45,593 bases of DNA from Gonapodya sp. JEL0774 (taxonomy: Eukaryota). A model generated the notes under the pieces. That model ran no database searches. It worked only from the letters and a program-made list of their open reading frames with translations, and was not told where the DNA came from. The translations under genes were made by a program, and so were the position numbers. Below are positions 33,820 through 36,239 of the stretch, piece after piece; within the stretch, counting starts at the first letter, position 1; each line of letters starts with the position of its first letter. The DNA lies in assembly GCA_027604505.1 (NCBI GenBank), contig JADIIX010000159.1:1-45593 (forward strand). The letters run 5' to 3'.

Positions 33820-36239
33820 ATGACAGCTGACCTCACCTTGTGCGCCGATCTCGATAATGAAGCGACGTTTGTACCCAACGTCGCCTCAGAGGCGACCCTC
33901 GAGAACGAAAACGAATGGAACGAAAATCAGGAGCGCACATTGTATGTGATCTTCTATTTTGCCCCCCTTCTTTTTAACACCAAGTGTGAACTGTGAAGGT
34001 GCCCGCATGTCAGATTGGTTCCTAACGTAGCGTTGCCGGCTGCTCTGGCCGCTCCGACGATTGCGGCCCTGAGCGATCAGTGAGTATGCTCTCGGCTTTC
34101 TTGTCTGGCACCGCGTTTCATTCATGATCGCTTGTCAGGCTCATACTCCCCAACGTCGCAGCCGGCGCCACTTTGGAGGACCCGGCGGAGGCTCTCCAGA
34201 TCGACAAGGTGTTGTTGGACGGGTGAGCATACTTTGTATTTCCACAATTGGCAATTCTATCATGAATTGTGATCACGTCTCAGATTGTTCGTACCCGGCG
34301 TCGCCTCCCCCCCATGTCTGGAAGACTTGGACGGGATGGCTCAGAGGAACGAAGCGCTGCCAGATGCGNNNNNNNNNNNNNNNNNNNNNNNNNNNNNNNN
34401 NNNNNNNNNNNNNNNNNNNNNNNNNNNNNNNNNNNNNNNNNNNNNNNNNNNNNNNNNNNNNNNNNNNNGAACGAAGCGCTGCCAGATGCGTGAGCATACT
34501 CTCGGTTTCAATATCCACAGTTTGCGCTTCATTCATGCATTGTGACCATGCCTCAGGTTGTTCCTACCCGGCGTCGCCTCCCCCCCATGTCTGGAAGACT
34601 TGGACGGGATGGCTCAGAGGAACGAAGCGCTGCCAGATGCGTGAGCATACTCTCGGTTTCAATATCCACAGTTTGCGCTTCATTCATGCATTGTGACCAT
34701 GCCTCAGGTTGTTCCTACCCGGCGTCGCCTCCACCCCATTTCTGGAAGACTTCGACAGGGCAACTCAGAGGAATGAAGAACTGCCAGGCGGGTGAGTGCA
34801 CTCTCGGTTTTAATTTTCACAACTTGCGCTTCATTCATGAATCATCATCACGTCTCAGACTTTTCCTCCCCAACATCGCCTCCGCCGCAACTCTGCAGGA
34901 CCCGACCGGGACACCGCAAAGGAATGCGGTGTTGCCAGACGCGTGAGCATACTCTCGGTATTGATTTGCACAGTTCGCGCTTCATTCATGAACCATAATC
35001 ACCTCTCAGGCTGTTTCCCGCGAACGTCGCATCCCCCGCGACTCTGCTGGACCCGACCGGGATACCGCAGAGAAATGCGGTGTTGCCCGATAGGTGAGCA
35101 TACTCTGGGTATTGATTTTCACAGGTCGCGCTTCATTCATGAACCATTGTCACCTCTCAGGCTGTTTCTCCCGGACGTCGCATCCCCCGCGACTCTGCAG
35201 GACCCGACCGGCACGCCTCAGCGAAACAAGGTGTTGCCAGAGGGGTGAGCATATTATAGTTCTCGCCTTCCCAGATTCTTGCCTTACAAACCATTCGATC
35301 ACATATCAGACTGCTGGTCTCTGACGTCCAATCGCCATCAGCACAGGGTAACCCTCAAGGAGCCCCCCAAACGACTGAAATAATTTGCGATGAGTGAGTA
35401 GACCCCATTCTCGCATTTTTTCCGAATATTGCGGCTGATGAAGTTTCATCATAAGACTGGTCTCTGAGGACGAGAATCGCCACAACGCGTGAGTTGACGG
35501 CATGCAATTTTCGACAAGTGATACGACTGAAACACTGTTATCGTCGTATTCGCAGTAGTGACGAGGTGGTCGTTTCACTTGAATGCCCTGGAGAGCTGAT
35601 CGGAGCGCCCTCGAACGCAGTCAACCTCGTCAAAGGGTAGGTTGGGTTGCCATTTGAAAACCGTTGCGTGAGGACATTCGAGTATTCAAATATTCCCTTC
35701 CACTTTCCAGCGGTGACAACGGCGGCGCCGGCTCTTCCGCGACTTTCTGGGACGAAATCACCATCGCCACCACCGAAGACGTGACAGAACCACCTGTCAG
35801 CGCACCATCCACACCACGGTTTCCCGGTCCCTCCCCTCCCTCTGTCGTCCCCTTTTACCAGCTCACCCCACCTCCTACTCCACGCCCCCCTCGTCTTCCC
35901 CCCTTTGGCCACCGGTTGGCCCGCCGCCTTCTCCTCGCCGCCTCATGCCAAGGACGTTGCACCGCCCCGAACCACGTGCTGTATTACGTACCACGACACA
36001 GGGAGCGTGATGTCATTGAGGACGAGCCTCTCCCCATTCGGCCCATGGAGGACATGATGGAGGATATTCTCCGGCAAATTGCGCGGGAGCGGGCAGGCGA
36101 CTTGGCTTTTGCCCGGATGAGGGCGATGGAGGAAGCTCGACGGATGCGCGAGGATGCTGCGTTGGGGTGGTGGGGTCGATTTAAGCGGAGTGTACGGAGG
36201 GCCGTGTTTTGCCGGGAACGAGGACGATGGGAGATGTGA
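33820..36239 (+). CDS. Uncharacterised repeat protein encoded by a tandem array of 84-nt phase-2 exons (14 or more exons)
   Basis: Model: 33820-33941, ~33999/34014-34079, 34139-34222, 34284-34367, [gap]-34489, 34557-34640, 34708-34791, 34859-34942, 35010-35093, 35161-35244, 35310-35393, 35456-35488, 35556-35636, 35711-36239. Every visible intron is GT..AG, mostly GTGAG..CAG, and phase 2. The spliced frame has no stop and joins the frame of ORF 35664..36239. Confidence 0.8.
34080..35393 (+). repeat. ~151-bp tandem repeat (intron plus 84-nt exon); at least 9 units
   Basis: Unit starts (GTGAG) at 34080, 34223, 34490, 34641, 34792, 34943, 35094, 35245, with exact 151-nt spacing from 34490 to 35245; at least one more unit spans the gap. 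Confidence 0.95.
34369..34468. other. Assembly gap (100 N) inside the tandem array; true copy number unknown
   Basis: Both flanks carry the same repeat sequence (GAACGAAGCGCTGCCAGATGCG). Confidence 0.97.

Follow-up and report, generated by a model that had tools for sequence, protein, structure and literature searches.

We analysed a window of 45,593 nt, the forward strand of contig JADIIX010000159.1 from the monoblepharid fungus Gonapodya sp. JEL0774, in which Tandem Repeats Finder reports a 151-bp repeat at positions 34480-35253. It breaks down into eight complete exon-like segments of 84 nt (E1-E8), each with a preceding intron-like spacer, and the array is under purifying selection in one reading frame. 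The array probably forms the central part of a functional gene, whose predicted protein of about 550 residues would be mostly unfolded.

An array of symmetric 84-nt exons

The spacers ahead of E1-E8 measure 59, 61, 67, 67, 67, 67, 67 and 65 nt, start with GTGAG and end with CAG. All eight segments are exactly 84 nt long, in phase 2-2 and free of stops in the proposed frame, and their peptides agree with those listed in an earlier, sequence-only reading of this locus, whose account of exons, introns, phase and peptides we could reproduce. A search of both strands of the window for the pattern YAG-84 nt-GTRAG returned ten matches, seven of them inside the array; the count there is seven and not eight because the donor of one array exon enters an assembly gap. 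Read unspliced, the array contains six to nine stops per frame. When splicing is modelled from an ATG at 33604 through 14 exons, the result is 548 codons with no stop, and the splice signals are intact at all 12 visible donors and all 13 acceptors. No stop codon is created by any of the 91 donor-acceptor pairings, in keeping with the earlier claim that the skipping, gain or loss of a unit would leave the frame intact. The proposed frame would survive such changes because every exon is symmetric, including those of 144, 66, 33 and 81 nt that flank the array. Such symmetry needs no purpose, since only symmetric exons outlast duplication and all introns here (13 of 13 modelled) are in phase 2. 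The sequence-only reading had further held that exon length stays fixed while outer intron lengths drift; the exon part stands, since 8 of 8 exons keep one length and the introns of the array have four. The core introns are constant in length (five of 67 nt).

All elements of the modelled gene lie on the forward strand. The probable first coding exon (33604-33725, 122 nt) runs from the ATG to a phase-2 end; its open frame continues without a phase break into the following exon, and it falls inside the public gene model described below. A 72-nt phase-2 intron (33726-33797, GTGAGT..CAG) leads to the 144-nt symmetric exon (33798-33941), which carries an ATG at 33820, a PPSY motif and, at about 33870-33906, half of a degenerate unit. 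A further 72-nt phase-2 intron (33942-34013, GTATGT..CAG) is followed by the 66-nt symmetric exon (34014-34079), likely a degenerate unit. The complete units begin with unit 1 (34080-34222), a divergent edge unit made of a 59-nt intron and E1 (34139-34222), and continue with unit 2 (34223-34367), made of a 61-nt intron and E2 (34284-34367) and absent from the public model. Beyond a gap of 100 N (34369-34468), whose flanks share 22 nt, lie five units with 67-nt introns: unit 3 (34490-34640, E3 at 34557-34640), unit 4 (34641-34791, E4 at 34708-34791), whose intron is identical to that of unit 3, unit 5 (34792-34942, E5 at 34859-34942), unit 6 (34943-35093, E6 at 35010-35093) and unit 7 (35094-35244, E7 at 35161-35244). 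Unit 8 (35245-35393), with a 65-nt intron and E8 (35310-35393), is the most divergent. Downstream, a 62-nt intron (35394-35455) and the 33-nt symmetric exon (35456-35488) occupy 35394-35488, with a junction common to the public model; the apparent acceptor of this intron is AAG, not CAG or TAG, and the public model agrees. A 67-nt intron and the 81-nt symmetric exon (35556-35636), of unique sequence, fill 35489-35636. The last intron (35637-35710, 74 nt, GTAGGT..CAG, phase 2) precedes the terminal exon (35711-36239), which encodes a Pro-rich stretch and then a predicted 63-residue helix and closes with a TGA stop.

The sequence-only reading had the gene start at ATG 33820. Instead, the frame stays open 5' of this codon through the phase-2 intron 33726-33797 up to ATG 33604, which is our best guess for the start, the 5' end being uncertain. 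The PPSY motif (33801-33818, +) would be translated only with a start upstream of ATG 33820; it would fit the PPxY ligand of WW-domain ubiquitin ligases.

Selection on the reading frame

Pooled over the 28 exon pairs, the ratio of non-synonymous to synonymous differences per site (pN/pS) is 0.55 in the proposed frame, the lowest of the six frames, the other five giving 0.68-1.49. Neutral simulations along the exon tree yielded a pN/pS of 0.94 +/- 0.15, and 0 of 2000 were as low as 0.55, which bears out the earlier suggestion that the frame is under selection; across five simulation variants (rate heterogeneity, unit subsets), 1-7 of 1500 were as low. A stop-free frame is weak evidence by itself, because 245 of 2000 neutral simulations reach it, whereas the pN/pS deficit is strong evidence. 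The ratio is uneven along the array and stands at 0.30 for E5-E7. GC content at third codon positions (GC3) is 0.63-0.85 in E1-E7, similar to the 0.76 of a neighbouring ubiquitin-conjugating exon, and a crude codon model prefers the proposed frame in five of the eight exons.

Duplication and recombination within the array

Homologous exons lie side by side in one gene, the pattern of tandem duplication of symmetric exons. The intron was copied along with the exon, as the sequence-only reading had proposed: the introns align between units, and two are identical across 67 nt. Neighbouring units are closest on the tree, with E2 and E3 only 2 nt apart, E5-E7 forming a group, and E1 and E8 on long branches. 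E4 and its downstream intron (34708-34858) form a mosaic, E3-like at the start and mixed with E5/E6 at the end (16 and 15 of 5000 in a max-chi-square permutation test). The array has thus recombined internally, and this mosaic unit points to unequal crossing-over, which the earlier reading had named, or to conversion.

The four distinct 67-nt introns vary at 22 of 67 columns and the exons at 44 or 47 of 84 columns (p 0.02 and 0.005 by Fisher's test), in a test picked after the data had been seen. Tree lengths are 0.45 for the introns versus 0.76, 0.56 and 0.88 for the three codon positions. At strict four-fold sites, the case for introns being better conserved than silent positions became weaker (37/228 for introns vs 10/48 and 20/60; by column, 10/38 vs 2/4, p 0.57). 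The lower intron variability could reflect splice constraint on short introns or partial homogenisation.

The array decays at both edges. A profile built from the eight units alone, without the motif in question, finds the half unit in the 144-nt exon weakly homologous (independent E-value, iE, 0.00085), which agrees with the earlier claim that degenerate units reach into what that reading took as the first exon. The same profile barely detects the 66-nt exon (iE 0.27 in protein, E 0.1 in DNA) and does not detect the 33-nt exon, and with a protein profile of E2-E7, E8 goes undetected and E1 is matched over its first 16 positions only. We found no second array and no spare or inverted exons in the 45.6-kb window. 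The introns have no hairpin in common, and Rfam gave 0 matches across 31000-37700.

Unit number and the public gene model

The sequences on either side of the 100-N gap have 22 identical bases in common, and closing the gap on this overlap leaves a perfect 168-nt run at period 151. Such a run, longer than a typical short read, would explain why the assembly breaks here. The sequence-only reading had counted an extra exon cut by the gap; this "ninth" exon may be a second view of E2, or the assembly may have collapsed further identical copies. The unit number is eight or more, and it is misstated in both the public protein and the assembly.

A protein search with the terminal exon led to one protein in NCBI, here P0001 (694 aa; source name, Gonapodya sp. 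hypothetical protein). Mapped to the window, P0001 uses the same junctions as our model, so the gene is not "hidden", as it had been called; it omits E2 and the gap. It also has three extra upstream exons from 32873, whose GC3 of 0.40-0.57 is less coding-like and which overlap another open reading frame (ORF). That separate spliced ORF (32350-33017, +) has donors at 32351 and 32625 and a last exon at 32679-33017, and P0001 begins within it in another frame. The first 170 residues of P0001 may be a mis-prediction. The upstream ORF has no Pfam or PDB match, and a suspected likeness of its part 32676-33017 to DCAF15 found no support in either.

The predicted protein

The repeats are 15% Leu, 13% Pro and 12% Ala, with a net charge of -17 across 196 residues, neither Trp nor Tyr, 11% Ser plus Thr and up to five prolines per unit. 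Hydrophobic residues are conserved at unit positions 1, 3, 6, 12 and 25 and polar ones at 14, 20 and 22, and the units differ at 25 of 27 positions. The sequence-only reading had proposed AlphaFold as a check between solenoid and disorder. Run on the single sequence, it left the repeats below 50 in predicted local distance difference test (pLDDT) score (five models, means 26-39) and was confident only about the C-terminal helix (residues 631-693 of P0001). As a control, a Sel1-repeat region from the same window, also modelled with no alignment, folded at pLDDT 93 in one of five models, which lends the negative a certain but limited weight. The C-terminal helix is rich in salt bridges; its first part is charged, and its end is basic-aromatic and amphipathic (hydrophobic moment 0.87 at 672-684). 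Foldseek returned nothing for the helix at E 0.001 or better, and VIA-align matched it only to generic long helices and coiled coils (Z <= 6.5). Inspection of both ATGs revealed no signal-peptide-like core after either (best 10-residue hydropathy 0.61 and 0.91; no dedicated predictor used).

Pfam, at E up to 10, gave 0 families for P0001 and for each of 10 single exons. The PDB sequence search gave 0 matches for P0001, and for the unit profile one unrelated match at E 1. No NACHT, NB-ARC, ROC-COR or kinase domain was found by Pfam in P0001 or the upstream ORFs. Word-index protein searches, which overlook distant relatives, returned only P0001 for the terminal exon (703 candidates), the repeat region (7998) and the unit profile (7994), and P0001 is a single-member cluster. 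ESM Atlas gave no usable match for residues 232-520 or 600-694; among metagenome contigs, 491 unit-pattern matches yielded 0 confirmed, and the intron pattern gave 0 matches. These searches suggest a provisional orphan status. Our literature search on Gonapodya or chytrid exon-repeat genes, which left most subscription papers outside its reach, found no paper on this gene.

Fungal adhesins of the Flo, Als and Epa families combine a signal peptide, Ser/Thr-rich repeats and a hydrophobic C-terminal glycosylphosphatidylinositol (GPI) signal. Judged by composition and hydropathy, this locus does not fit a GPI-anchored repeat adhesin, given the missing signal-peptide core, the 11% Ser plus Thr and the basic, charged C-terminus.

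Comparison with known exon-repeat genes

According to the accessible part of PMC3632108, disordered proteins show a tendency to be assembled out of symmetric exons, in many cases through internal tandem duplication, with calpastatin, MAP2, enamel and SIBLING proteins as examples in phases 1-1 and 0-0. As far as that part describes these genes, ours resembles them in having one module per symmetric exon, a single intron phase, predicted disorder and internal tandem duplication. It differs from them in its phase (2-2), in belonging to an early-diverging fungus, in being so young that its introns can still be aligned and in having no sequence relation to them. In the accessible part of PMC9013439, symmetric-exon duplication into modular proteins concerns animals only.

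Spider MaSp2 and flagelliform silk genes likewise have units bounded by repeated, alike introns and recombine within the array, and the excerpts available from PMC9779670 and PMC3563967 give their introns an average identity of 97.6% and describe huge, secreted proteins. In contrast, the core introns in Gonapodya differ by 0-27%, the unit has 28 residues and no signal peptide is apparent. Brown-algal ROCO/NB-ARC genes carry one leucine-rich repeat (LRR) or tetratricopeptide repeat (TPR) per exon, with shuffling (accessible parts of PMC3341825 and PMC11378527). Within what those parts cover, a repeat per exon, frame-compatible cassettes and intragenic recombination are shared with our gene, which lacks the LRR core and a ROC-COR/NB-ARC domain, shows no overall diversifying selection by pooled pN/pS, and for which no gene family or spare exons were found in the window or the protein searches.

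The unit also invites comparison with ribonuclease-inhibitor (RI)-type LRRs. In animal nucleotide-binding-domain leucine-rich-repeat (NLR) genes, these are laid out as one 28-residue repeat per 84-nt exon. The array shares this unit length and unit-per-exon layout, and LRRs are said to sit on single exons in the accessible part of PMC4852459; our own literature search on the 84-bp NLR exon layout found nothing. Unlike RI-type LRRs, the Gonapodya unit fails the LRR motif and profile tests, is Pro-rich and comes with no NACHT domain. The LRR core motif LxxLxLxxN, as defined in the accessible part of PMC3341825, does not occur in P0001 (0 matches), even when L, I, V or F is accepted. The faint LRR echo that the sequence-only reading heard, and itself doubted, did not survive the core-motif, Pfam and PDB tests.

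Surroundings of the gene in the window

A 733-bp inverted duplication (30517-31249 and 36863-37596; 690 of 737 columns identical, 94%) flanks a 5.6-kb stretch containing the array gene. The left arm is the 3' part of a ubiquitin-conjugating gene that looks intact, comprising its last exons, its last intron and the region downstream. The right arm carries differences that alter amino acids and borders on retrotransposon sequence. At the arms we saw no target-site duplication, the longest flank match being 5 nt and off-register. We rejected the arms as transposon ends, given this absence and the identity of the left arm as the 3' end of the ubiquitin-conjugating gene. They possibly fit an inversion by staggered breaks, as described in the accessible part of PMC1885836, or a duplicative insertion; the explanation of the array is independent of either. 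Positions 37597-45593 (-) hold the remains of a broken long terminal repeat (LTR) retrotransposon, cut off at the right arm, in which domains of reverse transcriptase, RNase H, SH3 and chromo type are recognised.

Farther away, 3857-6980 (-) contains a protein kinase ORF adjoining an ORF with 14 Sel1 repeats in uninterrupted 108-bp units (Pfam), probably one kinase-Sel1 gene. Its Sel1 part, modelled as a helical solenoid, offers a contrast case of repeats with no introns. Segments 1-872 and 7476-8289 are direct copies of each other, about 870 bp long and 75% identical, the second copy lying just past the kinase-Sel1 gene; it is perhaps a neighbouring paralogue. Tandem repeats at 14945-15240 (a 15-bp unit in about 5 copies; GTGTC in 17 copies) lie within long overlapping ORFs of no clear family, and 20665-22041 (+) encodes a fungal-specific transcription factor domain (PF04082).

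A probable lineage-restricted, mostly disordered repeat protein

We consider it fairly probable that the locus is a lineage-restricted gene in working order and encodes an intracellular and mostly disordered protein, the middle of which grew by copying a phase-2 exon with its intron into a string of multivalent motif beads, followed by a C-terminal helix for dimerising or anchoring. An ancestral phase-2 exon encoding a hydrophobic motif would have been copied along with its intron, and misalignment between neighbouring 151-bp units would keep adding, removing and mixing units. We infer from its composition that the protein could act as an intracellular scaffold or spacer. Multivalent binding would come from the 28-residue beads, each showing a short conserved motif (LFLPxVAS, then QRNxxLP) on an acidic, Pro-rich chain. 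The C-terminal helix would serve to dimerise the protein or, by its basic-aromatic end, to tether it to a membrane. The unit may resemble calcineurin LxVP or mitogen-activated protein kinase (MAPK) docking motifs. All exons are probably included constitutively; exon skipping is possible, and nothing seen requires it.

Several observations weigh against this interpretation. The repeat is fairly hydrophobic (15% Leu; FoldIndex +0.13), its regularly conserved Leu, Val, Asp, Gln and Asn could suit a fold, and one 19-residue window (262-282 of P0001), with a mean hydropathy of 1.67, is a borderline membrane segment. The failure of the Sel1 control in four of five models makes single-sequence AlphaFold a weak test. 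The youngest group of exons, E2-E4, has a pN/pS of 0.93, on small counts (7.3 synonymous and 20.7 non-synonymous differences), and constraint on it may have lapsed. The crude codon model slightly prefers another frame in three of the eight exons (E5-E7), and the public model, a prediction from the same DNA, is possibly not independent of ours.

We also considered other explanations. The 28-residue unit might be one turn of a folded, ligand-binding solenoid (a beta-solenoid of a new kind, or an RI-type LRR that has degenerated strongly), with 84 nt set by the geometry of the turn. Such a constraint would suit an exon length kept exactly in 8 of 8 exons despite pairwise differences of 2-48 nt, the conserved hydrophobic and polar positions, the positive FoldIndex and the RI-type layout of 28 residues per exon. 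We nonetheless regard a solenoid as unlikely: none of the units has the LRR core, Pfam offers nothing at E up to 10 and the PDB matches include no LRR chain, AlphaFold leaves the repeats unfolded, prolines number up to five per unit, and the flanking units are shortened to 22 and 11 residues. Equally doubtful is that the gene is a copy in recent decay or under relaxed constraint, which still encoded protein at the time most of its units formed, lost its function around the local rearrangement and has neutral newest units. The ratio of 0.93 in E2-E4 speaks for it, and the gene does sit in the 5.6-kb stretch between the inverted duplications, beside retrotransposon remains, with an unclear 5' end and no orthologue found in the word-index searches. 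Yet the E2-E4 counts are small, the 548-codon model has no stop or frameshift and its 12 visible donors and 13 acceptors are all intact; with arms 6% diverged, a gene dead since then would probably show some damage.

The frame-compatibility of all exon combinations (0 of 91 with stops), the mosaic unit, the differences among units at 25 of 27 positions and the lower variability of core introns than of exons (22/67 vs 44 or 47/84 columns) would also befit a generator of diversity like that of brown-algal ROCO genes, where conserved introns provide handles for recombination, and shuffling or alternative splicing of the exons gives a repertoire of binding specificities. This is improbable here. 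Selection is overall purifying rather than diversifying, as judged from pN/pS values (0.55 pooled, 0.30 in E5-E7, 0.93 in E2-E4); the window holds no spare or inverted exons or second array, the word-index protein searches gave no paralogue, and there is no signalling domain. The intron-exon contrast, besides being post hoc, weakens at four-fold sites and could be explained by splice constraint, and structural silk genes also have homogenised introns separating their repeat exons, according to the excerpts of PMC9779670 and PMC3563967. A narrower version, in which an undescribed, non-LRR 28-residue binding repeat forms exon cassettes with intron handles, and crossing-over plus skipping would produce a variant repertoire of the sort suggested for the ROCO receptors of brown algae, strikes us as more improbable still. 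That the array is a non-coding satellite with splice-like signals and an open frame by chance we consider very improbable, even if it reads as a 151-bp tandem repeat and 245 of 2000 neutral simulations are stop-free: the deficit of amino-acid changes is specific to one frame, length changes occur only in introns or by multiples of three, and the frame carries on in phase into five unique exons.

For the working, disordered-protein gene that we favour, the mechanism is textbook, and the repeat sequence is new, matching nothing found. Its value would be modest unless regulated skipping, unit shuffling or a folding unit emerges. The locus offers a clean, young snapshot of how a repeat protein grows exon by exon, with its newest copies near-identical, its edges decaying and one recombinant still visible.

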